Shown here: positions 5,976 to 45,224 of the stretch, piece by piece | How positions within the stretch are numbered: position 1 is the stretch's first letter | Layout: every line of letters begins with the position of its first letter | Assembly: GCA_050697055.1 (NCBI GenBank) | Contig: JBOGZE010000351.1 | Span: forward strand, 1-45,479 | DNA length: 45,479 bases | Direction: 5' to 3' | DNA from: Solirubrobacterales bacterium | GTDB taxonomy: Bacteria; Actinomycetota; Thermoleophilia; Solirubrobacterales; 70-9 | Translations under genes and position numbers: made by a program | The notes under the pieces: model-generated | The model's database searches: none | Told to the model about the DNA's origin: nothing | What the model saw: only the letters and a program-made list of their open reading frames with translations

Positions 5976-6437
5976 TCAGGCCACTGCGACCTGGGCGTGC
6001 TCGAGCACGCACGCTTCGACGGCGTCGGGCTCGACGTGCAGGAGGGGCAGCCCAAGGGCCCGTGCCTTGCTCGGCAAGTCCAAGCTGATCCAGCGAGACA
6101 CCCGATTGGGCAGGGTCGAGATGATGACCTCGTCGTAGTCGCCGGCGTATACGGCGTCGTGGACGGCGGCAACCGGATTGGGATCGCCAACATGCCCGCT
6201 GACCTCCGACCTGGCCGCGAGTGAGAGCCGCGGCAGCGCGGCGCGCAGATTGGCATCCGCCTCCTCGCGGCCGTGGTCCTCGGGATCGACGAGGCGGTGC
6301 AGCCCGGTGGGGGATGCGGGAACCACGAGGTGGAAGCTCGCCGCACTACGGTCGGCCCGAGCCCTGACTGCCTCCAGCAGGGCCGGGGTGGCGGCGGTGC
6401 GGTTGGCGACTATGAGGACGCGGGCGGTGTCTTCCAT
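5976..6437 (-). CDS. hypothetical protein, USP/adenine-nucleotide-alpha-hydrolase-like fold (tentative)
   Basis: MEDTARVLIVANRTAATPALLEAVRARA...FHLVVPA pattern. ATG at 6437 is preceded by a GGAGG RBS. The longer track start was rejected. Confidence 0.55.
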   Translation of the reverse strand: MEDTARVLIVANRTAATPALLEAVRARADRSAASFHLVVPASPTGLHRLVDPEDHGREEADANLRAALPRLSLAARSEVSGHVGDPNPVAAVHDAVYAGDYDEVIISTLPNRVSRWISLDLPSKARALGLPLLHVEPDAVEACVLEHAQVAVA

Positions 6438-6620
6438 CTGGGCCTCCGAGGTGTCGGGATTGTGGCAATTGCAACAACGCAAGACGGATCAATCTACCGG
6501 CCACCGGCCATGGACGTATAGATATTCAAATGAGTGTCCTGATGACTCTTTTATGGATTCATTTTCTGACTCTCCGCGCGAAGGTCCGAGCGGCAGCCCG
6601 AATCGCGTAGCTTCGATCAG

Positions 6621-7184
6621 ATGAAGACCCTGTTCGTGATCCGTCACGGGCAGACCGAGGCCTCTGCCCGCGGTGTCTACTCGAGCCGGGCGGAGATTCC
6701 ACTGACCGAGGAGGGCCGCGCGCAGGCAGGCCGCGCGGCCGAGCGCCTCCGTGACGCCGGCATCGACGCGATCCGCGCGAGCCCGCTGGATCGCGCACTG
6801 GAGACGGCGCGGCTGATCGCCACCGCGGTCGGAGCGCCGCTGGTGGTTGACGAGCGCCTGCGCGAGGTCGATTACGGACCGCTCGAGGGCCTCGACCGGG
6901 CGCAGGCGGAGGAGCGGTTCGGGGCCGCTTACACGGGCTGGCGCGACCGTCCTTTCGGCGGGGAATTATCGGGGATGGAGCCGCTCGCCCACGCGCTCGT
7001 CCGAGCTCGCTCAGCCGTGGACGATGCGGTCGCCGACGCCCGCCGACCGCTGCTGGTTGCACACCAGGGCATCCTCCGAGTGGTGCTGATCGCCCTGGGG
7101 CAGATCAGACGAGATCAGTACTTCGAGACCAGGATTCCGGAGGCGGAGCCTCGCGAGATCCTCCTTCCGAACAGTAGGAGCTAG
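6621..7184 (+). CDS. histidine phosphatase (phosphoglycerate mutase-like) family protein
   Basis: The RHG catalytic motif (LFVIRHGQTEA) and overall length are typical of the family. Confidence 0.85.
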   Translation: MKTLFVIRHGQTEASARGVYSSRAEIPLTEEGRAQAGRAAERLRDAGIDAIRASPLDRALETARLIATAVGAPLVVDERLREVDYGPLEGLDRAQAEERFGAAYTGWRDRPFGGELSGMEPLAHALVRARSAVDDAVADARRPLLVAHQGILRVVLIALGQIRRDQYFETRIPEAEPREILLPNSRS

Positions 7185-7915
7185 CTCGCCAGCGCCGGCA
7201 GCCGCTCTCCGAGCCTGCGCATGGCGCCGATGCCGGGTGCGTCGCCGTCGACGTCGATCGGCGCCACCCCATCGCGATCGGCTCTGGCGACGGCGGAGTC
7301 CTCGGGCACCTCGACGATCTCGTAACTGCCCAGCGCCGAGCGAATCACGTCACGGTCCTCATCGCTTTGGACCCGGTTCGCGATCACCATCACCCGCGCC
7401 TCCTTCGCCGCGGCCGACTTAGCCGCCCGGCGTGCGACCTCGATCGACTTCGGGGTCGGGTTGGTGACCACCAGGACGAGGTCGACCGAGCCCTCCTTCA
7501 TCTTGGTGAGCGTGCCGATTCCGGCCTCCAGGTCGCAGATGACCGCGCGCTCGGCGTCGTCCAGCTCGACCAGGAGCGCGTCGGGCGTGACGCCGCAGCA
7601 GGCGCAACCCGAGTCGAGGCCGTCCACGCGTGAGGCCACGATCAGGCGCACACCGTCGGGCGCGTCGGCGCCGAAGCGCTCTACCACTGCCTCGGCTGAC
7701 TCGGCGTGCTCGATCTTGCCGCCGTCGAGCGCCTGGCGAATCCCCGCGAGGCGCTCGGTCTCCTCGGGCCCGACCCCGAGCGAGATCCCGAGCATCGGGT
7801 TCACGTCGGCATCGAGCGCGAGCACGGTGCGGCCGGAGCGGGCGAGGGTCCGGGCGATCATGCCCGAGACCGTGGTCTTGCCGGCTCCGCCCTTTCCTGC
7901 GACCGCGACCTTCAT
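7181..7915 (-). CDS. CooC-type (MinD/ParA-class) P-loop ATPase with CxC metal motif
   Basis: Deviant Walker A (VAGKGGAGKTT), a LALDADVNP block, a GCAC Cys-x-Cys motif (DSGCACCGV), and DLEAG. These resemble nickel-insertion ATPase CooC. Confidence 0.75.
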   Translation of the reverse strand: MKVAVAGKGGAGKTTVSGMIARTLARSGRTVLALDADVNPMLGISLGVGPEETERLAGIRQALDGGKIEHAESAEAVVERFGADAPDGVRLIVASRVDGLDSGCACCGVTPDALLVELDDAERAVICDLEAGIGTLTKMKEGSVDLVLVVTNPTPKSIEVARRAAKSAAAKEARVMVIANRVQSDEDRDVIRSALGSYEIVEVPEDSAVARADRDGVAPIDVDGDAPGIGAMRRLGERLPALAS

Positions 7916-7922
7916 CGACCGA

Positions 7923-8735
7923 TCACTCCTCCGATGACCCGAGATTCATGTGCGGCGAGAGTCTACGCCCCTCGAGATCGTCCGCCAGGCGCTCGATCGC
8001 GTGCACTGCGAGGGCGTCCGGGGCGGCATCGAGCAGGGCGACGCCGCGGCGCTCGGCTGCGGCCACCTCAGGGTCGAGGGGGATTGATGCCATCACGGGC
8101 TTGCCGATCAGCAGCTCCACCCGGCGCCGGTCAGCCGCGCCGCGCACCTTGCTGGCGACGAACCGGACGTCGGCGCCGGGGAGGAAGGCGCGCGCCACCC
8201 GGGCGACCCGGCGCCCGGCCAGGGCCGAGGGCCAGGTCGGTTCGACCACAACCAGATACCTCCGGGCGAAGGCGGCGAAGCCCGCGCCGACCTGGCGCGG
8301 GCCCGCGGGCACGTCGCCGATCAGGGCCCAGTTCCGGAACGTCTTCGCACGGTCCAGGCGGTTGACCGCATCGTGATAAGCGAGCACCGACCCCTGGATG
8401 TTGGAGAGCCCGTCCCGATCCGCCTTTCCCAGCGTCAACAGTCTCACGCCGTCGGGAGCCTCGGTCGAGAAGCGCTGGATCGCCCGGACCGGACCGATGC
8501 CGGACTTCAGCCGCCAGCGGAACCCCTCGTAGTTCTCGGCGGCCTGATTAAGCGGTGGCTCGGCCGGCTCCTCCGCACCGAGCGACAGCGTCAGTCCGGG
8601 CATCGGATCGGAATCCAGGGCCAGCACCCTGTGCCCACGGCGAGCGAGGATCCGCGCGAGCGTTCCGGCGATCACCGACTTTCCCGCGCCGCCCTTGCCC
8701 GTGACCGCGATCCAGAGCCTGGGGTCGCGGCTCAT
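7923..8735 (-). CDS. CooC/ParA-like P-loop ATPase lacking the CxC motif
   Basis: Walker A (VTGKGGAGKSV) and LALDSDP are present. The equivalent region reads GLSNIQGS with no Cys pair. ATGA overlap with the ftsH-like stop. Confidence 0.7.
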   Translation of the reverse strand: MSRDPRLWIAVTGKGGAGKSVIAGTLARILARRGHRVLALDSDPMPGLTLSLGAEEPAEPPLNQAAENYEGFRWRLKSGIGPVRAIQRFSTEAPDGVRLLTLGKADRDGLSNIQGSVLAYHDAVNRLDRAKTFRNWALIGDVPAGPRQVGAGFAAFARRYLVVVEPTWPSALAGRRVARVARAFLPGADVRFVASKVRGAADRRRVELLIGKPVMASIPLDPEVAAAERRGVALLDAAPDALAVHAIERLADDLEGRRLSPHMNLGSSEE

Positions 8736-11428
8736 CCCGCCGCGTGCGCTGGCCCCCGGGAAGCGGCAGCGCGGACGGGCTGACCCCCGATTTCGTCGAC
8801 GTCCTCGAGGGTCAGGGTCTCGCGATCGAGGAGGGCCTCGGCGACGCGGTCGAGCGTCTTGCGAGACTGGCGAAGCACGTCTTCAGCAAGCAGTTCGGCC
8901 TCACGCACGAGCTTGCGCGCCTCCTCGTCGATCATACGCGCGGTCTCCTCCGAGTAAGAGACCCGCCCGTTGGCAGTGGCCTCATCCGGGTAATTGATCG
9001 CTCCGAGCGTGTCGCTCATGCCGAGCTCGGCGACCATGCGGCGGGCGATCGCCCCCACCGCGGCCAGGTCGCTCGCGGCCCCGTCGCTGAGCTCTCCGAA
9101 GACGAGTTCCTCGGCGGCGCGGCCGCCGAGGAAGGTGGCCATCCGCTCGAGCAGCAGCGAGCGGGAATGGATCAGGCGATCGTCTTCCTCGGCGTGCCAG
9201 GTGGTGCCAGCGAAGCGGCCGCGGCCGACGATCGAGATCTTGTGGAGCATCCGCCCGCCCGGCAGGGCGCGGGCCACAAGGCCGTGTCCTGCCTCGTGGT
9301 AGGCCACCATCCGGCGCTCGTCATCGGAGAGACGCCGGCTTCCGCCGATGCCGAGGCCCACCCGCTCCAGCGCCTCCTCCAGGATCTCCTGGGGGATGCT
9401 CTTCAGCCCGCGGCGGGCGGCGAGCAGTGCCGCTTCGTTCATGATCCCGGCGAGCTCCGCGCCGGAGAGGCCGCGCGTCAGGGTCGCGATCGTCTCCAGG
9501 TCGGCGTCCTTCTTCAGCCGCTTTCCCTGCGTGTGCAGGTTCAAAATCGCCAACCTTGCTTCGCGGTCAGGCAGATCGAGCTCGATCGTGCGGTCGAAGC
9601 GGCCGGGCCGCGTCAGGGCCGGGTCGAGCACGTCGGGCCGGTTCGTCGCGGCCATCACGATCACGCCCGAGCGCTGACCGAAGCCGTCCAGCTCGACCAG
9701 GAGCTGGTTGAGGGTCTGCTGTCGCTCCGAGTGATCGTTGAGCGAAAGGCCGCGCCGCGCGCCGATCGCGTCAAGCTCGTCGATGAACAGGATCGCTGGC
9801 GCCGTCCCGCGTGCTTGCGCGAACAGGTCGCGAACCCGTCCGGCGCCCTCCCCCACGTAGACCTCGACGAACTCGGTGGCAGAAGCGGAGACGAAGGCGG
9901 CGTTGGCCTCCCCCGCAACCGCGCGGGCCAGCAGCGTCTTACCGGTGCCGGGGGGCCCGGAGATCAGGTAGCCGCGAGGGATTCGGGCGCCAAGCTCCTC
10001 GAAGCGAGCCGGATCCGCCAGATACTCCCGAACCTCGCGAAGCTCCTCGATCGCGCCGTCCACTCCGGCCACGTCGCCGAACGTCACGCGCTCCTCCCCA
10101 AGCAGAGCCTGACCGATGCGCCGGTCGCGCATCGAGAGCCTGCGCTGTCGCTCCGGCGCCTCGCGGATGCGGGTTACCGCCTCCTCGAGGTCGTCCTGCG
10201 AGATCGCGCCCTTGCTCGCGCGGCCGGCTCGTAGCGCCGCCTCGTTCATCAGTCCGGCTAGGTCCGCCCCAGTCATGCCCACGGCACGGCGAGCGATCGC
10301 GTCGAGGTCCACCTTCGACGCGAGCGCCTTGGAACGGGCGTGCACCCGAAGGATCTCCAGCCGTCCCTGCTCGTCGGGAAGCTCGAGGCCGACGGCGCGG
10401 TCGAAGCGTCCGGGGCGCAGCAGGGCCGGATCGAGCACGTCCGGGCGGTTGGTGGCCCCGATCACGATCACCCCCTGCGCGGGCGAGAAGCCGTCGATCT
10501 CCGCCAGAAGCTGGTTCAGAGCCTGGTTCTGCTCCTCGGAGGAGGTGCCCGCCCCGCCCGACTGCCCGCCGCCAATTCGCCGGCGCCCAACCGCGTCGAG
10601 CTCATCGATGAAGACGATCGCGGGTGCGTTCTCGCGAGCCTCCTTGAACAGGTCCCGCACCCGGGCGGCGCCGACGCCCACATATAGCTCCACGAAGTCG
10701 GAGCCCGAGATCGAGTAGAAGGCGGCGCCCGCCTCGCCGGCGAGCGCCCGGGCCATCAGCGTCTTGCCGCAACCGGGGGGACCGAACAGCAGGACTCCCT
10801 TCGGGATCTGTGCGCCGAGGCTGGCGAAGCGGTCGGGGTCCGAGAGGAAGGTCGAGATCTCGCGCAGCTCCTCGACCGCTCCCTCCTGCCCCGCCACGTC
10901 GTCGAAGGTGACGTTGTGCTCCTCGGCGACGACGCGCCGGGCTCCGCTGCGCACCCCGAACAGCCCCGTGCCGCTGCGCCAGGAGATGATGAAGTAGATG
11001 AAGATCACCACCAGGATCAGGGCCGGGAGCAGGAACGTGAGGGGCCCCACCAGGCTCTTCGCGAACTGCTGGTTGATCGTGGTCGGGATCTGGTTGTCGA
11101 GCAGGATCTGCGAGAGCTGCTCACGCAGGGCCTCCGACTTGAAGTACGGGAGGTTGTAGGCCTGCGCCGTCCCGTTGTCGGCCTGATAGTCGCCGACGAC
11201 GTAGGCGTCCTGGTCGAGGATCTCGGCGTTGTTGATCCGGCCGGCCTCCGCCAAGGAGACAAAGCTGTCGAGCCGGAGTCGGTCGCCGTCCACGCTCGGG
11301 CGCGAGGCGGCCAGGACGCCGAAGTAGGCGACCAGCAGCACTCCGACGACCAGGACCGACCAGAATCCAAGGCTGCCGGGTATGCGACGTCCGGCGCGCC
11401 GCTGCTGGTTGCCTGGTTGATCGCTCAC
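8732..11428 (-). CDS. ftsH: FtsH-family membrane metalloprotease with two tandem AAA+ modules
   Basis: Two N-terminal TM helices flank an external domain. AAA-1 is at aa 172-425 ([37 protein letters not shown]). AAA-2 is at aa 447-695 ([37 protein letters not shown]). The M41 domain has HEAGH (nt 9284-9298) and LGGRAAEE. Confidence 0.9.
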
Positions 11429-25875: not shown

Positions 25876-27071
25876 CAGGTCGACGAGGCCTGGGGCGCGG
25901 CGGCGCTCTCCTCGGGGCGAGTCCCGGCGCCGTTCGCCCGGCGCCTGCGGCCCGCGTGGCGGCCGTAGTTGTAGTACGCCGCGCAGGCGCCCTCGCTCGA
26001 GACCATGCAGGTGCCGATCGGATGGTCGGGTGTGCAGGCGGTCCCGAAGACCTTGCACTCCCAGGGCTTGATCACGCCCTTCAGCACCTCGCCGCACTGG
26101 CAGGCCTTTGGGTCGGCGACGCGGACGCCGGGCACCTCGAAGCGGACCTCGGCGTCCCAGTCGGCGAACTCCGGTCGCAACTTCAGGGCGCTCTGCGAGA
26201 TGAAGCCGAGGCCGCGCCACTCGAAGGTGGTCCGGAGCTCCATCGTCTCGGCGATCGCCTGCAGCGCCAGGGGGTTCCCCTCGTCGCGGACCACCCGGCT
26301 GTACTGGTTCTCGACCTCGCTTCGCCCGTCGGCGAGCTGCCGCAGGATCATGTAGACGCCCTGGAGGACGTCGAGTGGCTCGAAGCCGGAGACGACCACC
26401 GGCTTTCCGTAGTCGTTGGCGATGAAGCGGTAGGGGCGAAGGCCGATCACGGTGGAGACGTGGCCGGGCCCGACGAAGCCCTCCAGCCGCAGGTCCGGCG
26501 AGTCGAGAATGGCCCGGATCGCGGGGATGATCGTGACGTGGTTGCAGAAGAGCGAGAAGTTCTTGATTCCCTCGATCCGGGCTCGCTTCAGGGTGAGCGC
26601 GGTCGAGGGCGTGGTCGTCTCGAACCCGATCGCGAAGAAGACAACCTCCCGGTCGGGGTGCTCGCGAGCGATCTTGAGGGCGTCGAGGGGCGAGTAGACC
26701 ATCCGCACGTCGGCGCCGCGAGCTTTGGCGTCGAGCAGCGATCCCTTGCTGGCGGGGACCCGCATCATGTCGCCGAACGTCGTGAAGATCACCTCGGGGC
26801 GCTCGGCGATCGCGATCGCGTCGTCCTGGCGGCCCATCGGGATCACGCAGACCGGGCACCCAGGGCCGTGGACGAGCTCGATCTCGTCGGGGAGCAAGTC
26901 CTCGACGCCGTGCTTGTAGATCGCATGGGTGTGGCCGCCGCACACCTCCATCAGCTTGTAGGTCCGCCCCGGCTCGACCATGCCCGCGATCCGCTCGGCG
27001 AGTTGGCGGGCGACATCGCCGGAGCGGTACTCGTCGACGAAGCGCATGCCACTGTTGCCCGAGAGGCTCAT
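25875..27071 (-). CDS. hypD: hydrogenase maturation protein HypD
   Basis: MEVCGGHTHAI, GPGCPVCV, GFETT, and a C-terminal CxxxxxxC.. Cys cluster (CQCGEVLKG...CKVFGTACTPDHPIGTCMVSSEGAC). Confidence 0.95.
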   Translation of the reverse strand: MSLSGNSGMRFVDEYRSGDVARQLAERIAGMVEPGRTYKLMEVCGGHTHAIYKHGVEDLLPDEIELVHGPGCPVCVIPMGRQDDAIAIAERPEVIFTTFGDMMRVPASKGSLLDAKARGADVRMVYSPLDALKIAREHPDREVVFFAIGFETTTPSTALTLKRARIEGIKNFSLFCNHVTIIPAIRAILDSPDLRLEGFVGPGHVSTVIGLRPYRFIANDYGKPVVVSGFEPLDVLQGVYMILRQLADGRSEVENQYSRVVRDEGNPLALQAIAETMELRTTFEWRGLGFISQSALKLRPEFADWDAEVRFEVPGVRVADPKACQCGEVLKGVIKPWECKVFGTACTPDHPIGTCMVSSEGACAAYYNYGRHAGRRRRANGAGTRPEESAAAPQASST

Positions 27072-28486
27072 GCCCGCTCCCCGATCGCCTCGAGCAGCAG
27101 GTGGTAGATGGTCGCCTGCGCCTCCTGGATCCGTGGGATGTAGTCGCTCGGGACGATGAACAGGTGGTCGAGCCAGTCGAGTGCGGCGAGCCGGCCGCCG
27201 TCGTAACCGGCGATCCCGATTGTCAGCATGTGCCGCCGGCGGGCCTCCTCGAGCCCGGCGACGAGGTTGGGGGAGTTGCCGCTGGTGGAGATCGCGACGG
27301 CTACGTCGTGCGCCCGGCCGAGCGGGATCAGCTGCCGGGCGAAGGCCTTGTCGAAGCCGACGTCGTTGCCGACGGCAGTGATCGTGGCGACGTCGTTGTT
27401 CAGCGCCGTCGCGGGCCAGCCGTGGGCCAATGCGTCGGTCGCGAGGTCCTGGGCGTCGGTCGAGGAACCCCCGTTCCCGAACGTGATCAGGTGGCCCCCG
27501 CGCTGGAGGCGCTGCCGGATCTCGGCGGCGCAGCGCTCGACGGCGCCGGTGTCGATCCCCGAGCGCAGCTCGATCACGTCGGCGGCCTTCTGGCGAGTGG
27601 ACGACTCGACATCGGCGAGGACCGAGTCGATGTCGGTCTCCTCGCCTTCCAGGAATGGATAGAGGAAGCCGGTCGGGTCATCCGCGCTTTGGCTTGATGC
27701 TCCCTCCGGGCGCTCGCCCACCGCCGGGTCGCGTTGGCCGGGAGGGACCTTCTCCAGGGCCACCCCCGCGTGGCAGAGCAGCTCGTCGCCGACTTCGACC
27801 CCCTCGACCAGGTCGACGGCGACATCTTCGTGGGCGCCGTCCTTCTCGATCGTCGCGGTGCCGTTGCTGACCGCGACTACGCGCGCCTGCACGGCGATGT
27901 CGCCGCAGGTGATGCAGGCGTCGTCGAGCAGCCCGGGGTGCTCGAAGAAGACGTGGACCAGCTCCCAGAGCACGTGGTAGGCCGTCTCCTGAGTCTCCTG
28001 AACGATCGTGGCGTCCTCGCTCGGGACCTGGAATTCGTATTCGGCGTCGGCCCCGTGGGAGGCTCCAGGGCCGACCATCGCGATCGTCAGCATCCCGCGG
28101 CGACGCGCCTCGAGCAGGAAGGCTGCGATCTCCTCGTCGCCCCGGTCATGAGAGATCGCGAGCGCGATGTCATCGGCTCGGGCCAGCAGGGTGAGCTCCG
28201 CGGCGCCGGTCGGGTCGTTGGTCGGTGCGAGCGCCGGCAGCGCGCGCTTGCCGACGATCACCGGGTGCATGAACTCGACCGCCGCGTGGGCGGCGTCGGT
28301 CGCCGCCGCCCCGGTGCCGAATGGGATCAGGGTCCCGCCACGGGCGAACGAGCGCGCCATCGCGTGGCAGGCCCGGGCGAGCCGGGTCGCCTCGGCGTCG
28401 AAGAAGCCGCGAACGACGCGCTCGCGCTCGGCGATCAGGGCGTCCAGGCGGCCGGCGCCGAGAGTGGTCGTGCTCGGCCGGGCAGC
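27068..28486 (-). CDS. fusion protein: degenerate SIS domain, HypC/HupF-like OB domain, intact SIS (GmhA-like) domain
   Basis: C-terminal SIS: GGHLITFGNGGSSTDAQ ... AISTSGNSPN ... PRIQEAQATIYH. N-terminal SIS-like: GGTLIPFGTGAAATDAAH ... AISHDRGD ... IVQETQETAYH. Middle: CITCGDIAVQARVVAV...VGDELLCHAGVALEKV, which aligns to the HypC encoded next door. TTG at 28486 is the first in-frame start after the hypC stop. ATGA overlap with hypD. Confidence 0.75.
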   Translation of the reverse strand, partial: AARPSTTTLGAGRLDALIAERERVVRGFFDAEATRLARACHAMARSFARGGTLIPFGTGAAATDAAHAAVEFMHPVIVGKRALPALAPTNDPTGAAELTLLARADDIALAISHDRGDEEIAAFLLEARRRGMLTIAMVGPGASHGADAEYEFQVPSEDATIVQETQETAYHVLWELVHVFFEHPGLLDDACITCGDIAVQARVVAVSNGTATIEKDGAHEDVAVDLVEGVEVGDELLCHAGVALEKVPPGQRDPAVGERPEGASSQSADDPTGFLYPFLEGEETDIDSVLADVESSTRQKAADVIELRSGIDTGAVERCAAEIRQRLQRGGHLITFGNGGSSTDAQDLATDALAHGWPATALNNDVATITAVGNDVGFDKAFARQLIPLGRAHDVAVAISTSGNSPNLVAGLEEARRRHMLTIGIAGYDGGRLAALDWLDHLFIVPSDYIPRIQEAQATIYHLLLEAIGERA

Positions 28487-28494
28487 CAATGGTC

Positions 28495-28773
28495 CTACTC
28501 GATCACGCTGGTCTTGAGCTCGGCCAGCTCCTGCTCGTAGGGAGCGCCCAGCGTCTCCAGAAACTGGCGCGTCTGCTTCGCTTCCTCCTCGTCGATCTTC
28601 GACATCGCGAAGCCGACGTGGATCAGAACCCAGTCGCCGATCTCGACCCCGTCCTCGCCCTCGGCCAGAAGGCCCACGTTCACGTTTCGGCGAACGCCGG
28701 AGACCTCGGCCTTGGCGATGTGGTGCTCGGAATCGACGAGTTCGACGATCTGGCCGGGAATGCCTAAACACAT
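28495..28773 (-). CDS. hypC: hydrogenase maturation chaperone HypC
   Basis: Canonical MCLGIPGQIVEL N-terminus, 92 aa. AAGGAGGAG RBS upstream. Confidence 0.93.
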   Translation of the reverse strand: MCLGIPGQIVELVDSEHHIAKAEVSGVRRNVNVGLLAEGEDGVEIGDWVLIHVGFAMSKIDEEEAKQTRQFLETLGAPYEQELAELKTSVIE

Positions 28774-32658: not shown

Positions 32659-32742
32659 TAATTGGGACCAAGATCCCCTTGATTTCCAATGGAAGCCGGG
32701 GTAGGGTCGCGGCTCCCAAATGGTCGGAAGCGAGGAGAAGTT

Positions 32743-33801
32743 GTGAGCGTTGAGGTGACGTCGGCCGGGCCGATCCCGGTGGATCGCGCACCTGGCCCCG
32801 AGCGTGGCGGAGCGTCGCACGCTCTCTCCGCCCTGGAGCCGGTCGCCCTCGCCGCGACCCGGGCAGCGGCGCTCGCCTGCCAGGAATTCGTCGGCCGCGG
32901 GGACAAGACCGCCGCGGATGCCGCGGCGACCGAGGCGATGCGGTCGGAGCTCTCGACCGCCCCTGGCATCGGAACGGTGGTGATCGGCGAGGGAGAGAAG
33001 GACGAGGCGCCGATGCTCTACAACGGGGAGCAACTGGGCGTCGGCGGGCGCGAGTTCGACATCGCGGTCGATCCGCTGGAGTGCACGACCTTTTGCGCAA
33101 AGGGATTGCCCGGCTCACTCGCCACGATCGCGTTCGCGGAGCGGCGCACTCTGCTGCGGCCGGGTCCCTCCTTCTACATGGACAAGCTCGTGGTCGCCGC
33201 GCCCGCTCGCGACGCCATCGACATCACTGATCGCCCCGAGGCGAATGTCACCCGTATCGCTTCCGCCCTCGGCAAGGCGACTGCCGAGCTTCGCGTGGTG
33301 GTCTTGGACAAGCCCCGCCATGCCGAGCTGATCGGACGGTTGCATCGCACCGGGGTCTCCGTGATCACGCCGGCGGACGGCGACGTGGCGGGTGCGCTCC
33401 AGGCTCTGCTGCCTTCGCTGGAGGCCGACGCGCTGATGGGCATCGGGGGAACGCCCGAGGGCGTGATGACCGCGTGCGCCGCAAAGGCGGTCGGAGCGGG
33501 CATGCAGGCCCGGCTCGCCCCCCAGGATGAAGCGGAGGCTCAGGCGCTCGCCGAGGCGGGCTTGGACACCGATCAGGTCTTCGAGTTGGACGACCTCGTC
33601 GGCGGCTCGGCCTTCTTCGCCGCGACGGGAGTCACCGGCGGCTCCCTGCTCGGTCCCCCAAGGGAAGTGGATGGAGACCTGGTCACCCAGTCGATCCTCG
33701 TCTCCCAGCATTCAGTGAGCTTCGTGGAGGCCCGGCATGCGGGTCACGGGGGACCCACCACGACGACGGATCCATCGAGAGAACACATGGAGGTCGATTA
33801 G
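32743..33801 (+). CDS. glpX: class II fructose-1,6-/sedoheptulose-1,7-bisphosphatase (GlpX type)
   Basis: GRGDKTAADAAATEAMR, VIGEGEKDEAPML, DIAVDPLECTT, GIGGTPEGV. GTG at 32743 lies 5 nt after a GAGGAG RBS. Confidence 0.9.
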   Translation: MSVEVTSAGPIPVDRAPGPERGGASHALSALEPVALAATRAAALACQEFVGRGDKTAADAAATEAMRSELSTAPGIGTVVIGEGEKDEAPMLYNGEQLGVGGREFDIAVDPLECTTFCAKGLPGSLATIAFAERRTLLRPGPSFYMDKLVVAAPARDAIDITDRPEANVTRIASALGKATAELRVVVLDKPRHAELIGRLHRTGVSVITPADGDVAGALQALLPSLEADALMGIGGTPEGVMTACAAKAVGAGMQARLAPQDEAEAQALAEAGLDTDQVFELDDLVGGSAFFAATGVTGGSLLGPPREVDGDLVTQSILVSQHSVSFVEARHAGHGGPTTTTDPSREHMEVD

Positions 33802-33803
33802 CA

Positions 33804-34832
33804 ATGGAGAGAGCAGAGCTCGAGATGACCGCTCAGGCGATGGTGGCCGAGGGCAGGGGCATTCTCGCCGCCGACGAGAGCACGGGCACGATGGACAAGC
33901 GGCTCGAAGGCGTCGGGGTCGCACCCACCGAGGAGGCGCGCCACGCCTTCAGGAACATGGTGCTCACGGCCGACGGCGCCGGGCAGTTCATCAGCGGCGT
34001 GATCATGTACGACGAGACCCTCCGCCAGGCGACCTCCGACGGTATCCCCTTCCCGGAGTATCTGGCGCAGCGTGACGTGCTGCCGGGGATCAAGGTGGAC
34101 ACCGGCGCCAAGCCGCTCGCAGGCTACCCGGAGGAGACGGTCACCGAAGGGCTCGACGGCCTTCGGGAGCGCCTCGGCGAGTACCGTCAGCTCGGCGCGC
34201 GGTTCGCGAAGTGGCGGGCGGTGATCAAGATCGGCCCGGGGCTGCCGACCCTTGGCTGCATCGACGCGAACGCCCATGCGCTCGCCCGCTACGCGGCTCT
34301 CTGCCAGGAGGCCGGGATCGTCCCGATCGTGGAGCCCGAGGTGCTGATGGACGGCGATCACACCATCGATCGCTCGGAGGAGGTCACCACGGAGGTGCTT
34401 CGGGCGGTCTTCGGTCAACTCGCTGATCAGCGAGTGCGGCTCGAGGGGATCGTCCTGAAGCCGAACATGCTGCTCTCCGGTTATGACTGCCCGGAGCAGG
34501 CGAGCGTCGCGGAGGTCGCCGAGCGGACGCTGATCTGCTTTCGGCGCGTGGTGCCTGCCGCGGTGCCCGGGATCGCCTTCCTCTCCGGCGGACAGAGCGA
34601 CGACCTGGCGGCCGCGCACCTCGACGCCATGAACAGGCTCGGCGGAGTTCCCTGGGAGCTGACCTTCTCGTACGGCCGTGCGCTTCTGGCCGCGTGCCTG
34701 AAGACGTGGTCTGGCGACAGCTCCAGGGTTGACGAGGCTCAGGCCACCTATCTCCATCGCGCCCGCTGCACGGCGGCCGCCCGGAACGGCGAGTACAGCG
34801 AGTCGATGGAGAGAGAGCTGGTTGCTTTTTGA
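33804..34832 (+). CDS. fba: class I fructose-bisphosphate aldolase
   Basis: GILAADESTGTMDKRL and the Schiff-base Lys block LEGIVLKPNM are class I (PF00274-type) motifs. Confidence 0.9.
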   Translation: MERAELEMTAQAMVAEGRGILAADESTGTMDKRLEGVGVAPTEEARHAFRNMVLTADGAGQFISGVIMYDETLRQATSDGIPFPEYLAQRDVLPGIKVDTGAKPLAGYPEETVTEGLDGLRERLGEYRQLGARFAKWRAVIKIGPGLPTLGCIDANAHALARYAALCQEAGIVPIVEPEVLMDGDHTIDRSEEVTTEVLRAVFGQLADQRVRLEGIVLKPNMLLSGYDCPEQASVAEVAERTLICFRRVVPAAVPGIAFLSGGQSDDLAAAHLDAMNRLGGVPWELTFSYGRALLAACLKTWSGDSSRVDEAQATYLHRARCTAAARNGEYSESMERELVAF

Positions 34833-34864: not shown

Positions 34865-36409
<1,545 letters not shown>

Positions 36410-36433: not shown

Positions 36434-36907
36434 ATGCGAGTCACACAGGGCACGTTCTCGTTCCTCCCCGACCTCACCGACGAGGAGATCGAGGCTCAGA
36501 TTCGGTACGCGCTCAGCAACGGATGGGCGATCGGGGTCGAGTACACCGACGACCCACACCCGCGCAACTCCTACTGGGAGATGTGGAGTCACCCCCTGTT
36601 CGATCTGGGGGAGGACGAGACCGAGGAGCCGATGCGCTTGATGCGCGAGTGTCGCACCGCGAATCCCAACCACTACATCAAGGTGACCGCCTACGACTCC
36701 AACTACGGCAGGCAGACGACCGCGCTCGCCTTCATCGTCAACCGCCCCGCGGATGAGCCCGGATTCAGGCTCGATCGAACGGATGTCGGCGACCGCCAGA
36801 TGGTCTACCGGCTCCAGCCCTACGCGACGCTCCGCGAGCCCGTCGGCCGCCGCTACGGCAACTCACCCGACGCGACCGGCGCAGCCAAGGACGGCGCCGG
36901 GTCCTGA
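36434..36907 (+). CDS. cbbS: RuBisCO small subunit (red-type, with C-terminal extension)
   Basis: [44 protein letters not shown] ... [26 protein letters not shown]. Confidence 0.93.
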
Positions 36908-36936: not shown

Positions 36937-38046
36937 ATGGCCGACCAGGCATTCACCATGAATCGAAAGAGGCCCGGCGACTCCCGCGCGGCCACCCGGC
37001 CGCCCGAGGAGCCAAAGCCGACGGCCGAGATCGACCGCATCATGGCCGACGCCGCCGACTCCGAGGCGAGCGTGCAGACGATCTTGCGCGAGACCCACGT
37101 CAACCAGGTGCTCGAAGACCTGGATGCGGAGCTGGTCGCGCTCGAGCCGGTGAAGCGGCGCATCAACGAGATCGCCGCATTGTTGGTGATCGACCGGCTG
37201 CGCCAGGAGCACCGCCTGAGCTCGGAGCGTCCGACCCTCCACATGTCCTTCACGGGCAACCCCGGCACCGGCAAGACAACGGTCGCGCTGCGGATGGCCG
37301 AGATCCTGAATCGCCTCGGCTATCTCGAGAAAGGGCACGTCGTCTCGGTCACCCGTGACGAGCTCGTCGGGCAATACGTCGGCCACACCGCTCCGAAGAC
37401 CAAGGAGGTGATCAAGAGGGCCTACGGTGGAGTCCTCTTCATCGACGAGGCCTACTACCTGCATCGCCCGGAGAACGAACGCGACTACGGCGCGGAGGCG
37501 ATCGAGATCCTGCTCCAGGTGATGGAGGCGGACCGCGACAAGCTGGTGGTGATCCTGGCGGGTTACAAGGATCGGATGGACCAGTTCTTCGAGTCCAACC
37601 CCGGGATGGGCTCGCGGGTGGCCCACCACGTCGACTTCCCCGACTACGACGTGGGCGAGCTGATGGAGATCGCCGACCTGATGCTGGATCGCGCCTCCTA
37701 TCGACTCTCGCCAGATGCCGAGAAGGCACTTCGCGAGTACACCGAGCGACGGATCGAGCAGCCCCGGTTCGCCAACGGCCGCAGCATCCGCAACGCGATC
37801 GACCGCGCGCGGCTACGCCAGGCGAGCCGGTTGTTCGAGAGCGACGGTCAGCTGAGCAAGGATCAGCTGGTCACGATCGAGGCCGAGGACATCTACGCGA
37901 GCAGCGTCTTCGAGTCAAAGCATAAGGATAGCTCGATGAATAGCCCAGGAAGTTTTGCTTGCAATCCATCCATGTCACGGCTAGATTCGCCTGCCTTCCC
38001 GCGGGATGCGGGAGGCGCCGAGGCGACCGGCGAGAGTGCGAGCTAG
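36937..38046 (+). CDS. cbbX: CbbX-type AAA+ RuBisCO activase
   Basis: [60 protein letters not shown]. About 40 aa extra at the C-terminus. Confidence 0.9.
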
Positions 38047-41150: not shown

Positions 41151-41831
41151 GTGCCAGGCAAGGGGCGGACTCCGATTCAGGACCGACGCTCCGGTGGCGA
41201 GCGCGACGGAGGCCGACTGCGTGGCCCGACGAGCCTTCGCTCACGACTCGCCGAGGTCTTCCTTGTCACGGCGCAGGCGGCGGCGGCAGGCCGCGGCGTG
41301 CTCACATCGAGCGAGCTTGCGCGGCACGCCGGCCACAGCGAGGCACAGGTTCGCCGCGACCTCCAGGCCGTAGGAGCAACAGGCAAACGGGGAGTTGGCT
41401 ATGAGGTCGACCGCCTCCTCGCGCAACTGGAGAGCCGCCAGGGACCGAGCGGCCGGGTCGCGCTCGTTGGCGGGAACGGATTCGGGACAGCGCTGCTCGA
41501 GTCTCCACTACTGAAGACACTCGGCATCGAGGTGGCCGCTGTCTTCCAGCGGGATCCGCCGACGGGCCGGTCCGGGATCGAGCGGGAGATCCTGCCGCTG
41601 TCTCGCCTGGGCGACGAGGTTTCGGCCCGCAAGATCGAGGCCGCGGTGCTCGCCACTCCGGCGGGCGAGATTCAGGAGGCCTACGACGCCGTCTGCGCCG
41701 CGGGCGTGCGGCTTGTCGTGAGCTTCGCGGGCCAGCTACTCGAGAAGAGGGACGGCGTCGCGGTCTATTACGCTCAGGCGGCGGACCGCCTGCTTCGCGC
41801 TATTGCGCTTTCGTCCGCCCCGCCGGCTTAG
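41151..41831 (+). CDS. rex: Rex-like redox-sensing (NAD(H)-binding) transcriptional regulator
   Basis: Winged-helix block SSELARHAGHSEAQVRRDLQAVGATGKRGVGYEVDRLL, and Rossmann block VALVGGNGFGTALL ... VAAVFQRDP ... AVLATPAGEIQEAYDAVCAAGVRLVVSFA. Starts 6 nt after the tkt stop. Confidence 0.65.
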   Translation: MPGKGRTPIQDRRSGGERDGGRLRGPTSLRSRLAEVFLVTAQAAAAGRGVLTSSELARHAGHSEAQVRRDLQAVGATGKRGVGYEVDRLLAQLESRQGPSGRVALVGGNGFGTALLESPLLKTLGIEVAAVFQRDPPTGRSGIEREILPLSRLGDEVSARKIEAAVLATPAGEIQEAYDAVCAAGVRLVVSFAGQLLEKRDGVAVYYAQAADRLLRAIALSSAPPA

Positions 41832-42789
41832 ATGCCCTGCGGCCGCCGCGGGACCGCTCACGGCCGGCTCCATCCGTAAACCAGAATTGCTCGACGAGCC
41901 GCTTCGCCGCCTTGCTCGTGACGAAATCAAGGAAGTCCTGAACGGGCTCGCGCAGCAGACCCTTCGAGGGCCAGAGGGCGAACCACTGGCGCCGAGGCAG
42001 GGGCTCGCGAACGGAGACCGCAGCGAGTATGCCGTGCTCGAGCTCGAGGGCAGTTGCCGCCCTTGACTGAAGCGATACCCCGAGGCCCGCCCGGACGGCC
42101 TGCTTGATCGCCCCGTTGGAGCCCATGGTCAGCATCTGCGGCCGCAGTTCGTGGCGAGCCAGGAATTCCTCCGTCATCGTGCGCGTGCCCGACCCCTGCT
42201 CCCGCAGGAGCCACGGGCGCTCACCGAGCTCGTGGACCGGCACGGCGCGACGACGTGCAAGCGGGTCGTCGGGCGCCGTGATCAACATGATCGGGTTCTC
42301 CAGGAAGGCCTTCCCGGAGAGCTCGCCATCCGCTGGAGGCCGGCCCCCGATCGCGACGTCGGCCTCATGGCTCGCCACCTGCCGAAACACGCGCTCGCGA
42401 TTGCCGACGTCAAGTGTCACCCTCAGCTCCGGGCGTCGTGCTGAGAACTCCTGCACCAGCGGGGGGACGATGTGCTCGGCGGCAGTGGTGACCGCCGCGA
42501 TGCGCAATTCGCGTTCCACCGCGCCGGCCGCCTCGCGAGCCGCGCGGCCTCCCTGATCGAGGAGACCGATCACATGCGCGGCGTACGGCGCGAAAGCCTT
42601 GCCCGCGTCGCTGAGCTCGACAGAGCGGCCGGCACGCTCGGTCAACTCGACGCCGAGCTCCCTGGAGAGTGCCGAGACGGCTGCGGAAACGGAAGGCTGG
42701 GTGACATAGAGCTCGGTGGCAGCCCCGGTGACGGACCCCGTTTCGACGATCGCGACGAAACTGCGCAGCTGCGTCAGCGTTATAGCCAT
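41800..42789 (-). CDS. cbbR: LysR-family transcriptional regulator (CbbR-like by position)
   Basis: MAITLTQLRSFVAIVETGSVTGAATELYVTQPSVSAAVSALSRELG is a LysR HTH. The ATG at 42789 was chosen over the track start. The gene symbol is inferred from context only. Confidence 0.75.
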   Translation of the reverse strand: MAITLTQLRSFVAIVETGSVTGAATELYVTQPSVSAAVSALSRELGVELTERAGRSVELSDAGKAFAPYAAHVIGLLDQGGRAAREAAGAVERELRIAAVTTAAEHIVPPLVQEFSARRPELRVTLDVGNRERVFRQVASHEADVAIGGRPPADGELSGKAFLENPIMLITAPDDPLARRRAVPVHELGERPWLLREQGSGTRTMTEEFLARHELRPQMLTMGSNGAIKQAVRAGLGVSLQSRAATALELEHGILAAVSVREPLPRRQWFALWPSKGLLREPVQDFLDFVTSKAAKRLVEQFWFTDGAGRERSRGGRRASKPAGRTKAQ

Positions 42790-42889
42790 TTGCCTAACTA
42801 TAAACGGATTCCTTGAGAGAAACGTCCCTGTATATGGAATAGCTTGCGGGTATAGACTGCTCGTGCCGATCGCCACGAAAGGAGCGCCT
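42790..42889. promoter_or_regulatory. AT-rich divergent intergenic region between the LysR and CBS-pair genes
   Basis: 100 bp, markedly AT-rich, and contains ATAGCT (42839-42844) and TATAG elements. Divergent promoters and LysR autoregulatory sites are expected here. Confidence 0.5.
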
Positions 42890-43297
42890 GTGCTCGTCCG
42901 CGAGGGAATGAACCCAATCGTCGTCACCGTCGGCCCCGATCACACGCTGAGGGAGGCGGCGAAGCGAATGACCAAGTACCGGGTCGGGGCGGCGGTCGTG
43001 TTCGACAACGAGCAGCCCGCCCCCGGGATCATCACCGAGCGTGACCTGCTGCGCTCCAACGGCCGGGGCGAGGACATCGACAAGGAGCTGGTCCGCGATC
43101 ACCTCGCCGACCAGCTGATCTACGCCTACGCCGACTGGCCGCTCCAGAAGGCCGCCGAGGAGATGACCCGGGGGGGCTTTCGCCACGTCATCGTCCTCGA
43201 GCAGGGAACGCCAATCGGCATCCTCTCGATGCGTGACATCGTCCGCTGCTGGTTGACCGAGGGCGCGGGCGACGTTACTCCGGCCCCCGCCGGCTGA
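42890..43297 (+). CDS. CBS-pair domain protein
   Basis: Two CBS motifs (VGAAVVFDNEQPAPGIITERDLL and FRHVIVLEQGTPIGILSMRDIV). GTG lies 5 nt after an AAAGGAG RBS. Confidence 0.75.
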   Translation: MLVREGMNPIVVTVGPDHTLREAAKRMTKYRVGAAVVFDNEQPAPGIITERDLLRSNGRGEDIDKELVRDHLADQLIYAYADWPLQKAAEEMTRGGFRHVIVLEQGTPIGILSMRDIVRCWLTEGAGDVTPAPAG

Positions 43298-43425
43298 GAG
43301 CGACCCGCACCGCAGAATCTTCTATGGGACGCCGCCAAAAGGCGATGGATCTCGGCTGCACCCCGTCCTACTCTCTTCGCATGGGTAGATCCGCACCCCG
43401 AGGGAGCGCCCCAGGTTGGCCGTCG

Positions 43426-43761
43426 ATGCCGCCGGTTGCCGCCGATCAGGTCGCCCGCTCCTTCCTCTCACGCTCGCTCTGCTGCGCGGTCGAGGTCTGC
43501 TTGCCCACGGAGGCCGGCGCCGGCGTTGTTTCATGGCGCTGGGAGCCGTCGCTGGTCGTGCTCCGCGACGGCGAGGTCGGCGAGGTGGTCGAGGCGGTCG
43601 CCGAGACGATTCGCGCGCATCCCAACCGTGACGTCAGGATCGCCGGCTACGACCCGTCGCGGCTTAGGAGAGTGGCAAGCCCGCCACCCTTCGTCTGCTT
43701 CCAGGCGGGCGCCCGAGGGCCGCAGCCGCAAGAGCCAACGACTTCGCTGGCGCCGGTCTGA
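43426..43761 (+). CDS. RuBisCO small-subunit-like (RbcS-like) protein, highly divergent; start uncertain (alternative ATG at 43381)
   Basis: MPPVAADQVARSFLSRSLCCAVEV...SWRWEP...VVEAVAETIRAHPNRDVRIAGYDPSRLRRVA..FVC aligns by eye with the window's own CbbS ([27 protein letters not shown]...YWEMW...[34 protein letters not shown]). GC3-rich. Confidence 0.45.
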   Translation: MPPVAADQVARSFLSRSLCCAVEVCLPTEAGAGVVSWRWEPSLVVLRDGEVGEVVEAVAETIRAHPNRDVRIAGYDPSRLRRVASPPPFVCFQAGARGPQPQEPTTSLAPV

Positions 43762-43777
43762 GCGTTGGATCGCGTAC

Positions 43778-43839
43778 TTGACTTTCACCCCTCGCCGCGA
43801 TCTAGTATGTGCTCTGGACATCTAGAGGTCGCTCGCTAG
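43778..43839 (+). promoter_or_regulatory. candidate promoter and CTAG-rich repeats upstream of the hydrogenase genes
   Basis: TTGACT (43778-43783) and TAGTAT (43803-43808) with a long 19-nt spacer. Three CTAG-containing elements: CTAGTATGTGC (43802), CTAGAGGTCGC (43822), CTAGTCCCGCC (43836). Confidence 0.35.
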
Positions 43840-43865
43840 TCCCGCCGCGACGAGGAGAGAGAAGG

Positions 43866-45224
43866 GTGGCAACCACGCAGGTCGGCGGTATTCCGGTAGC
43901 CGAGAAGGCGGGCGACGTCTTCGGTGGCGCTACGCCGCGCGGCATCGGGGGGCTCGGCGGTTCGGACGAGGGCCCGCTCAGCGAGGTGCATGTCTTCTGG
44001 ATCGCGGGCATGAGCTGCGACGGGTGCTCCGTGGCCGCCACCGGCGCCACCTCACCCTCGGTCGAGGAGCTTCTCGCCGGTTCGATTCCCGGGATCCCGA
44101 AGGTGGTCCTCCACCATCCGGTGCTTTCGGTGTCGGCGGGCCACGGCTTCGTCGAGCCGTTCGCGAAGGCCGTCGCCGGCACTCTCGGGGCCCCTTACGT
44201 GGTGGTGCTCGAGGGGTCAATCCCGGATGACCAGAGATTCGAGACCGAGGGCTTCTTCTCCGGCCTCGGCCTCGGCGCCGACTGGCCCGAGGGCTTCGAC
44301 CCGCCCCGCGCTGCGGACCAGCCGCTTCGGATCACCGACTGGGTCAGGTGGATGGCCCCCGGGGCGGCGGCTTGCGTCGCGATCGGAACCTGCGCCACCT
44401 GGGGCGGGGTCCCGGCGGCCGCCGGAAACATAACCGGCTCGATGAGCCTGATGGACTTCCTCGGCCGGGACTACCGCTCGGCGCTGGGCGTGCCGGTGGT
44501 CAACGTCCCCGGCTGCTCCCCGATCGGCGACAACTTCACCGAGACCGTCGCCGCCGTCCTCATGTTCCTCCAGGGCGTCGGTCCGCTGCCGGAGCTCGAC
44601 GAGCTCGGCCGCCCGGCCTGGCTCTTCGGCGAGACGGTGCACCGGCACTGCCCCCGGGCCGGCTACTACGAGGAGGGCATATTCGCGGAGCAGGAGGGCG
44701 ACGAGGAGTGCCTGGTGCACATCGGCTGCTGGGGCCCGGTCGTCCAGTGCAACATCACCGAACGCGGGGCGATCAACCACATGGGCGGCTGCATGGTCGC
44801 CGGTGGCGCCTGCATCGGCTGCACCATGCCCGGCTTCCCCGACAAGTTCTCGCCCTTCTACAAGGCGCCACCCGGTTCGGCGCTCTCGGGGGCAATGGCG
44901 AGGACCTATGGCACCCACATCCGCAGGCTGCGGCGGCTGTCGCTACGGAGTCGCAACACCGAGCCACTGTGGGACCTGACGGGCCACGTGCCGAGCGCCT
45001 TCGCCCGGGAGGCCTCGAAGCCGTCGCTGACCGCGAGGCTGGAGGGGTTCTTCTACAAGAAGCTGCAGTACTGGGACACGGTAGACCAGGCCAAGCGCAA
45101 CAAGAAGCAGCCTGTCCCGGAGAGCCTCGACGTCCTCAAGTCCGGCCCGACTGGCGGACTCGCCGGCCAGGCGCCCCCAGGTGATGGAGAAGAGGCAGGA
45201 CCCGACGAGATACAGGTGGGTTAG
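43866..45224 (+). CDS. [NiFe]-hydrogenase small subunit, no Tat signal, long C-terminal extension
   Basis: FeS ligand blocks WIAGMSCDGCS, GTCATWGG, PGCSP, HRHCPRAGYYEEGIF, CLVHIGCWGPVVQC, GGCMVAGGACIGC. GTG at 43866 follows an AGGAGAGAGAAGG RBS. No RRxF motif. Confidence 0.9.
   Translation: MATTQVGGIPVAEKAGDVFGGATPRGIGGLGGSDEGPLSEVHVFWIAGMSCDGCSVAATGATSPSVEELLAGSIPGIPKVVLHHPVLSVSAGHGFVEPFAKAVAGTLGAPYVVVLEGSIPDDQRFETEGFFSGLGLGADWPEGFDPPRAADQPLRITDWVRWMAPGAAACVAIGTCATWGGVPAAAGNITGSMSLMDFLGRDYRSALGVPVVNVPGCSPIGDNFTETVAAVLMFLQGVGPLPELDELGRPAWLFGETVHRHCPRAGYYEEGIFAEQEGDEECLVHIGCWGPVVQCNITERGAINHMGGCMVAGGACIGCTMPGFPDKFSPFYKAPPGSALSGAMARTYGTHIRRLRRLSLRSRNTEPLWDLTGHVPSAFAREASKPSLTARLEGFFYKKLQYWDTVDQAKRNKKQPVPESLDVLKSGPTGGLAGQAPPGDGEEAGPDEIQVG

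Follow-up and report, generated by a model that had tools for sequence, protein, structure and literature searches.

Contig JBOGZE010000351.1 of a Solirubrobacterales bacterium, analysed here over its full length of 45,479 nucleotides (the window), carries a Calvin-cycle (cbb) operon and, past the gene of a LysR-type regulator, an open reading frame (ORF) for a small protein that resembles RbcS, the small subunit of RuBisCO, and the small-subunit-like (SSUL) domains derived from it. This SSUL-like protein belongs to a family that is classified here within the RbcS/SSUL superfamily, and which is new in being stand-alone, actinobacterial, found with a red-type RuBisCO and linked to cbbR and to a gene for a CBS pair. 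Its function is probably cbb-related. The gene is as follows:

43381..43761, + strand: SSUL-like gene (ATG at 43381, TGA at 43759-43761), encoding a stand-alone protein of 126 amino acids with a predicted RbcS/SSUL fold

A first-pass annotation, made from the letters of the window, had described this ORF as an orphan, highly divergent relative of the RuBisCO small subunit that looked expressed rather than decayed. The relationship to RbcS was borne out by profile, fold and conservation tests. BLASTP aligned the protein with the CbbS of the window (36434-36907) with an E-value of 4e-4 (26% identity over 47 amino acids), and the match covered the ETIRAHPNRDVRIAGYD block exactly as it had been quoted. 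Alignment by hhalign with a profile of only four CbbS sequences ran over 75 columns (E 0.0028, probability 11%); this is weak taken alone but supportive in register, and it paired the N-terminal helix and the W-x-W blocks just as the first-pass annotation had done. The Pfam model RuBisCO_small (PF00101) matched the ORF with E-values of 0.002-0.004 (17.7-18.4 bits), below its gathering score of 27 bits, and was also matched individually, again below threshold, by 9 of 27 family members (best E 1.3e-4).

When a profile of the 27 members was searched against the PDB sequences, RbcS or SSUL accounted for 35 of the 36 matches (best E 0.001), which were collinear from helix A to strand C. A hidden Markov model (HMM) of 41 family sequences was run against all six-frame ORFs of the fetched loci, and its only matches outside the family were the bona fide CbbS proteins of two of them, L004 and L007. 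The hallmarks of RbcS that were tested (a Glu in strand bA, a Trp before bB and the pattern P-x3-[VI]-R-[IL]-x-[GA]-[YF] at aB/bC) were all present: W54, R86 and Y90 are conserved in 41/41 sequences, E38 in 40/41 and P81 in 38/41. The remote similarity of the SSUL-like protein to RbcS is real.

The likeness extended to the predicted structure. AlphaFold2 gave a model with a pLDDT of 85.6 (above 90 in the core) from 41 sequences, and of 58.7 when only two sequences were supplied. The topology of the model is aA(18-30)-bA(34-45)-bB(49-60)-aB(66-79)-bC(85-91)-bD(104-107), that is alpha-beta-beta-alpha-beta-beta, so that the core spans residues ~18-107; both tails are poorly conserved. In Foldseek searches of the PDB with either model the top 50 matches were all RbcS or SSUL, the best E-value (3.5e-5) being obtained with the 41-sequence model. 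The lowest rmsd and the highest target-normalised TM-scores belonged to SSUL domains, 6z1g_A (0.77, 3.4 Å) and 6has_A (0.72, 3.5 Å), although this score is normalised by the shorter SSUL target, which favours SSUL matches. Judged by these models, the protein very probably has an RbcS-like fold.

The ORF is a real gene. The good GC3 bias claimed for it stood in so far as its GC content by codon position (0.69/0.61/0.80) is coding-like, but a GC3 of 0.80 is lower than the 0.81-0.95 of the neighbouring genes. The closest relative, P0002 (76% identical), is encoded on a 1-kb Logan contig, L001, which has the same hydrogenase gene downstream as the window. All indels between the two ORFs are multiples of three. 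Nucleotide identity between the window and L001 is ~97% for the adjoining gene of the hydrogenase small subunit and ~80% for the SSUL-like ORF, which therefore evolves comparatively fast.

Two alternative ATG codons exist in the same frame, at 43324 (the mechanical ORF) and at 43426 (the choice of the gene caller). In L001 a stop codon closes the frame opened at 43324 and the ATG at 43426 is deleted, whereas the ATG at 43381 is kept; 43381 was taken as the start because, unlike the other two, it is common to the relatives. The stretch upstream of it shows a 1-nt indel between two further loci, L010 and L012, and is therefore regarded as non-coding, though parts of it are conserved nonetheless. 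An N-terminal extension (the peptide MDLGC..Y, encoded upstream of 43381) was ruled out by the L001 stop and the L010/L012 indel.

Alignment of the window with L001, L010 and L012 revealed conserved elements before the start codon:

43343..43374, + strand: promoter-like conserved elements

The motif CGATGGA (43343-43349) lies 19 nt upstream of a -10-like hexamer (43369-43374), which reads TAnnCT in three of the four aligned loci and CATGCT in L010; in all four it is separated by 6 nt from the start codon, an ATG or a GTG. From conservation and spacing alone it may be inferred that the SSUL-like gene has its own promoter of actinobacterial type and, because the hexamer ends so close to the start codon, a leaderless mRNA. 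A scan with the E. coli-type sigma-70 consensus found no promoter match upstream of the gene, and a terminator consensus scan and Rfam gave nothing meaningful around it. The intergenic region between cbbR and the CBS-pair gene (42790-42889) is AT-richer and has CTAT / TATGG-like motifs (CTATAAAC, GTATATGGAAT and GGTATAGAC), as has 43320-43350, upstream of the SSUL-like gene (TTCTATGGGAC and CGATGGATC). These motifs might constitute a shared operator; a dyad-symmetric T-N11-A LysR box was not found in the 100-bp cbbR-CBS intergenic region.

Far from being an orphan, the ORF belongs to a family of ~45 protein clusters, each annotated as 'hypothetical protein' or without a name. When 1.84 billion representatives were searched exhaustively with HMMER, a two-sequence profile returned 31 of them at E<=1e-3, ~25 of which were genuine short relatives, and a word-indexed search with the alignment of the relatives added 15 further clusters. 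All genuine members are stand-alone proteins of 80-170 amino acids with no domain fusions. Four proteins considered as multi-SSUL scaffolds (P0009, P0010, P0028 and P0032) were rejected as unrelated repeat proteins matched via short motifs, and P0026 was rejected as a frame-shifted fragment.

The family is rare. Scans of genome and metagenome contigs with the two closest sequences gave no matches. A pattern scan with the alignment of one subfamily, b, found a single genome among 185,579 GTDB species genomes, a metagenome-assembled genome of Thermoleophilaceae (JAXDIG010000039, locus L007), and the corresponding scan with subfamily a found three metagenome loci. Since no NCBIfam model matches the family and no Pfam gathering score is reached, it is invisible to current annotation. 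The literature on SSUL- or RbcS-like proteins was searched for links to form IE, to actinobacteria, to cbbR and to hydrogenase, and only papers on cyanobacterial carboxysomes were found.

Some members of subfamily b (P0027, P0047 and P0035, the last encoded at L003 10001-10507) have a low-complexity C-terminal extension of ~60 residues, absent from the protein of the window. It ends in a conserved hydrophobic or amphipathic stretch, APLWWRVLAGALSLLRA, which is reminiscent of a membrane anchor or of an encapsulation-type peptide.

Gene order was compared across 14 loci, the window included. In seven of them (the window, L002, L003, L004/5, L007, L011 and L012) the SSUL-like gene has a cbbR-type LysR gene no more than two genes away, and in six a CBS-pair gene adjoins it. 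RuBisCO genes are present on five contigs, as cbbL-cbbS-cbbX in the window, L002, L004 and L007 and as a cut cbbS followed by cbbX in L003. The order in L002, L004/L005 and L007 is a gene similar to Thermus thermophilus TT0030, the SSUL-like gene, a convergent cbbR, fba, cbbL, cbbS, cbbX, prk and COXG; L004 and L007 also carry XdhC/CoxI, and no hydrogenase gene was found within 10 kb in L002, L004 or L007. The energy module near the SSUL-like gene thus varies (hydrogenase/hyp, or CoxD/E/G with XdhC), while the cbb link persists. The first-pass annotation had rightly placed the ORF between the cbb regulator region, here cbbR and the CBS-pair gene, and the NiFe-hydrogenase small subunit. An association with hydrogenase did not hold up: what recurs is the link to cbbR, the cbb genes and the CBS pair, and some relatives stand beside accessory genes of CO dehydrogenase.

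L003 combines these elements in the order (cbbS), cbbX, prk, tkt, a Rex-like gene, cbbR(-), an SSUL-like gene, hypF and a 160-aa gene(-), and continues with a second SSUL-like gene, a CBS gene(-) and a TT0030-like gene(-). The two SSUL-like paralogues belong to different subfamilies; one (6566-6985, + strand) lies between cbbR and hypF and the other (10001-10507, + strand) is convergent with the CBS gene. No NCBIfam model matches the product of the 160-aa gene. The contigs of P0047 and P0027 have a similar arrangement, and that of P0034 has the order CBS gene, SSUL-like gene, 400-aa ORF. In L008 (TT0030-like, CBS, SSUL-like) the CBS and SSUL-like genes overlap by one base and are translationally coupled. 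In L009 the SSUL-like gene comes after GntR, which is itself preceded by hypD and two hypC genes, all three on the minus strand.

In L011 and L012 a cbbR-like gene follows immediately downstream of the SSUL-like gene, in the same orientation. L010 and L012 carry close relatives, of subfamily a: in L012 the SSUL-like gene (~1147-1482) comes after an IS66 transposase fragment (375-947), and in L010 the SSUL-like gene (436-771) comes right after a tRNA-Gly gene (50-123) and is followed at some distance by CoxE, a CoxD-like gene and HycI. These two loci share sequence to just past the SSUL-like stop codon and then diverge, which suggests a rearrangement or an island boundary. Taken together, the SSUL-like family resides in chemolithoautotrophy islands of high-GC, H2- or CO-oxidising Actinomycetota.

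The Calvin-cycle genes of the window and those that separate them from the hydrogenase are listed here:

32689-33801, + strand: glpX-type fructose bisphosphatase gene, Calvin-cycle operon
33804-34832, + strand: class I aldolase gene, Calvin-cycle operon
34955-36409, + strand: cbbL (Pfam), red-type form I RuBisCO, presumed target of the SSUL-like protein
36434-36907, + strand: cbbS (Pfam), red-type small subunit
36937-38046, + strand: cbbX (NCBIfam TIGR02880, above cut-off), activase
41151-41831, + strand: Rex-like redox-sensing repressor gene, closing the cbb operon
41800..42789, - strand: cbbR-type LysR gene (Pfam HTH_1, LysR_substrate), convergent with the cbb operon
42890..43297, + strand: stand-alone CBS-pair gene, 135 amino acids, GTG start after GAAAGGAG (Pfam CBS, E 7e-24)
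43866..45224, + strand: NiFe-hydrogenase small subunit gene (Pfam, NCBIfam), with its own conserved promoter-like segment at 43762-43865

The solved RbcL structures closest to the CbbL of the window are of the red type (Galdieria, Rhodobacter sphaeroides and Cupriavidus). Downstream of cbbX the operon continues on the + strand with prk and tkt, then the Rex-like gene. The latter and the convergent cbbR have ~30 bp in common at the 3' end of cbbR, and the same pair is found in L003 and on the P0047 contig. The cbbR gene, the product of which is 57-64% identical to those of the LysR genes beside the SSUL-like genes in L002, L003 and L007, is divergent from the CBS/SSUL-like pair, from which 100 bp of intergenic DNA separate it. 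The CBS protein is 68-79% identical to those encoded beside SSUL-like genes in L003, L006 and L008, and its relatives in the PDB are MJ1225 and ST2348. CBS pairs of this type sense adenine nucleotides. No carboxysome shell genes were seen in the annotation of the window or of the loci, and the RuBisCO is red-type with CbbX, in agreement with the first-pass description of the cluster as non-carboxysomal.

The gene of the NiFe-hydrogenase small subunit is a neighbour of the SSUL-like gene, but its product is probably not the functional partner of the SSUL-like protein. The segment between the two genes (43762-43865) contains TTGACT ... TAGTAT and a near-palindrome flanked by CTAG, and is almost identical in L001 in spite of the ~20% divergence of the SSUL-like ORF just before it; it probably serves the hydrogenase as promoter and operator. 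Further hydrogenase-related genes (hypD, an ORF containing hypC, and hypF) are found at 25.9-31.0 kb. The ORF between hypF and hypD (27068-28771, - strand, 567 amino acids) has a HupF/HypC domain (292-343) and a SIS domain (408-554); this may be an unusual fusion, or the ORF may have been drawn too long.

The TT0030-like gene, which adjoins SSUL-like or CBS genes in other loci, lies far from them in the window:

5976..6482, - strand: TT0030-like gene, ~150 amino acids, 37 kb from the SSUL-like gene (BLASTP, PDB 2IEL)
L002 5624-6073, L003 10938-11390, L004 3428-3901, L006 1999-2451 and L008 266-742: TT0030-like copies

Its product (VLLVANRTA...HLLVPATPRGLH) is homologous to T. thermophilus TT0030 (PDB 2IEL, E 4e-17) and 58-62% identical to the copies in L002, L003, L004, L006 and L008, identities across loci being 58-87%; Pfam and NCBIfam gave no family for it. 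Close by in the window (7181-11428, - strand), two genes for CbiA/ParA-like ATPases stand beside a gene whose 898-aa product combines an M41 peptidase domain with two AAA domains. Similar ParA-like genes, and PadR-like genes, occur near the SSUL-like gene of L010 (2051-6571, - strand).

The SSUL-like protein differs from a canonical small subunit in several respects. Like RbcS and CbbS (PF00101), the protein has the fold and the hallmark positions, and it can be aligned collinearly with them over ~75 residues, but it scores below the gathering threshold. The cognate CbbS and its orthologues have a conserved N-terminal arm (MR[IV]TQGTFS[FY]LPD) and, after the Pfam domain, a C-terminal extension of ~50 residues. 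In the SSUL-like protein, by comparison, residues 1-17 are modelled with a pLDDT of 62-69 and are poorly conserved, with only faint W-S-x-P-P / L-P-P-W motifs; some members of the family begin inside helix A, although those gene calls may be truncated. At the other end, the protein stops 20 residues after bD in an unconserved tail of low confidence, and has no counterpart of the red-type bE-bF C-terminal hairpin of the cognate CbbS.

The family has instead two near-invariant cysteines, Cys35 (39/41) and Cys106 (36/41), neither of which is found in CbbS. Subfamily b has in addition a third near-invariant cysteine, where bB ends, and frequently a histidine following the last cysteine. From the strand topology of the model these residues would be expected along one edge of the sheet, where they could form a putative disulfide or metal site.

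The rate of evolution differs as well. Between the window and L002/L007, identity is 84-85% for CbbL, 74% for CbbX, 68-69% for phosphoribulokinase (PRK), 62% for CbbS and 57-59% for the LysR protein, but only 36-40% for the SSUL-like protein. In comparison with L003 and L008, both of which have a CBS gene, the CBS proteins are 69-79% identical and the SSUL-like proteins 34-41%. Part of this gap may be due to the comparison of paralogous subfamilies, as L003 has two copies. Judged by identity between the same loci, the SSUL-like protein evolves about twice as fast as CbbS. Its gene lies 6.5 kb downstream of cbbS, past cbbR, adjoins cbbL in none of the 14 loci, and every cbb cluster seen retains a normal cbbS.

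The closest known systems are the SSUL modules of cyanobacterial CcmM and of the Rca-like activase (6HBA, 6MR1, 6HAS, 6Z1G). These modules occupy a groove between RbcL dimers, and their binding responds to redox state through a disulfide (PMC8580825; bioRxiv 10.1101/2020.05.16.099382). The SSUL-like protein shares with them a compact RbcS-derived domain of ~85-90 residues, conserved cysteines, genes for RuBisCO and an activase encoded alongside, and a proposed place outside the catalytic complex. The architecture is different: SSUL modules are found in tandem arrays of 3-5 or joined to an AAA+ or gamma-CA-like domain, whereas the present protein is a single stand-alone domain. It is moreover actinobacterial, with no carboxysome genes seen, its partner would be a red-type form I RuBisCO with CbbX rather than form IB, the genes that accompany its own are cbbR and one for a CBS pair, and its sequence similarity to SSUL is marginal (E 0.03-0.7).

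The reading preferred here, at about even odds, is that the SSUL-like protein binds RuBisCO as an accessory adaptor or regulator. In this proposal its gene would be part of the cbb regulon, with its own leaderless promoter downstream of the CBS-pair gene, and the protein would dock on red-type CbbL8S8, or on an assembly intermediate of CbbL, as SSUL docks on the form IB enzyme. Its part would be that of an accessory adaptor or regulator and not that of the small subunit of the catalytic complex. By analogy with SSUL, the groove between RbcL dimers would be the more probable docking site, because the protein has no clearly conserved RbcS arm motif and no red-type hairpin and is of the size of SSUL. 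Control by redox or energy state is suggested by the near-invariant cysteines together with a CBS-pair partner of the adenylate-sensing type. It is conceivable, though doubtful, that the SSUL-like protein and its CBS partner bind red-type RuBisCO reversibly according to redox state and adenylate charge, so as to switch, protect or cluster the enzyme.

A speculative analogy can be drawn with CP12. Cyanobacterial CP12 is intrinsically disordered and targets PRK and glyceraldehyde 3-phosphate dehydrogenase, and fusions of CBS pairs with CP12 exist. Both CP12 and the present protein are small, bear cysteines, belong (here by proposal) to the Calvin-cycle regulon and are tied to a CBS pair, and the role that they might share is to sequester a Calvin-cycle enzyme in response to redox state or adenylates. 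Their folds are unrelated, however, and in the window the CBS pair and the small protein are encoded by separate genes.

Several observations weigh against an RbcS-derived adaptor of RuBisCO. The profile of subfamily b alone matched no RbcS among the PDB sequences, so that the sequence-level signal stems from the other subfamilies. The dN/dS between the ORF and its closest relative is 0.45, indicating that constraint is only moderate. No RuBisCO gene was found in the 10 kb downstream of the SSUL-like gene in L010. Cys35 and Cys106 are 71 residues apart, whereas the disulfide in the SSUL of Nostoc Rca joins Cys360 and Cys380 with a spacing of 20 residues (bioRxiv 10.1101/2020.05.16.099382). Being monovalent, the protein could not cross-link RuBisCO as CcmM does unless it oligomerised. 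Finally, the tightest linkage is to cbbR and the CBS pair and not to cbbL or cbbS, which a purely regulatory partner would fit equally well.

This last point leads to the main rival, that the SSUL-like protein is a regulatory partner of the CBS-pair protein and/or of CbbR that does not touch RuBisCO, for example a co-regulator or anti-activator relaying redox or adenylate status to cbb transcription. The position next to or one gene away from a cbbR-type gene in 7/14 loci fits this role, as do the arrangement directly upstream of it on the same strand in L011 and L012, the pairing with CBS in six loci with translational coupling in L008, the Rex-like redox repressor that closes the cbb operon and the near-invariant cysteines. 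Genes beside a LysR regulator are, however, usually its targets and not its partners, and the protein has no DNA-binding or known LysR-interacting feature. The conserved core residues and fold of RbcS are most simply explained by a retained interaction related to RbcL. A purely regulatory role is considered unlikely.

An alternative small subunit, placeholder or assembly chaperone, which would occupy the RbcS site of CbbL8 in some conditions or during assembly, would account for the RbcS-like fold and the hallmark residues. The ~17 residues before helix A approach the length of the RbcS arm and have their faint motifs where RbcS has S-F/Y-L-P-D/P, and SSUL itself is able to bind the RbcL8 core (PMC8580825). 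Against this, the N-terminal arm is poorly conserved and several members, as called, begin inside helix A. The C-terminal extension of the red type is also missing, and in red-type CbbS the hairpin that it forms is important for the assembly of RuBisCO. The protein evolves far faster than CbbS, and its gene is never next to cbbL in clusters that each have a normal cbbS. Such a role is decidedly unlikely, and of the three put forward in the first-pass annotation (alternative small subunit, assembly factor or RuBisCO-binding adaptor) the alternative small subunit is the least likely.

A role in the lithotrophic energy module, in the maturation of NiFe-hydrogenase or CO dehydrogenase or in electron transfer, would make the RbcS fold a relic, for example in a small metal- or redox-active cysteine protein. 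The gene is indeed directly upstream of the hydrogenase small subunit in the window and L001 and beside hypF or hypC/hypD in L003, L006, L009 and the P0047 contig, and the three near-invariant cysteines of subfamily b, often followed by a histidine, could suit such a protein. The hydrogenase gene nevertheless has its own promoter-like segment and has diverged from L001 far less than the SSUL-like gene (~97% against ~80% identity), in L002, L004 and L007 the gene stands beside cbbR-cbbLSX with no hydrogenase gene within 10 kb, and it is the energy module that varies and not the cbb link; this explanation is very improbable. That the ORF of this high-GC genome is spurious or in decay, as might be argued from the GC3 below that of the neighbours, the dN/dS and the poorly conserved tails, is effectively refuted by the conservation of the family, with invariant residues across ~45 homologous clusters, a confident AlphaFold2 model, indels that are in-frame only, conserved synteny and a conserved promoter-like upstream region.

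The SSUL adaptors found in the literature all belong to proteins of cyanobacterial beta-carboxysomes, where form IB RuBisCO is their target. With an SSUL-like family that is free-standing and tied to cbbR, a CBS sensor and red-type RuBisCO/CbbX, the small-subunit superfamily would gain a new lineage, enzyme type and architecture. If the SSUL-like protein does bind RuBisCO, small-subunit-derived adaptors would have arisen outside cyanobacteria and also for red-type enzymes, and if it does so together with its CBS partner, the pair would be a CP12-like or carboxysome-independent condensation module that acts on RuBisCO itself. The carriers are H2- or CO-oxidising actinobacteria of the kind invoked for atmospheric chemosynthesis. 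The family would also be a candidate means by which chemolithoautotrophs without carboxysomes control RuBisCO after translation or organise it.

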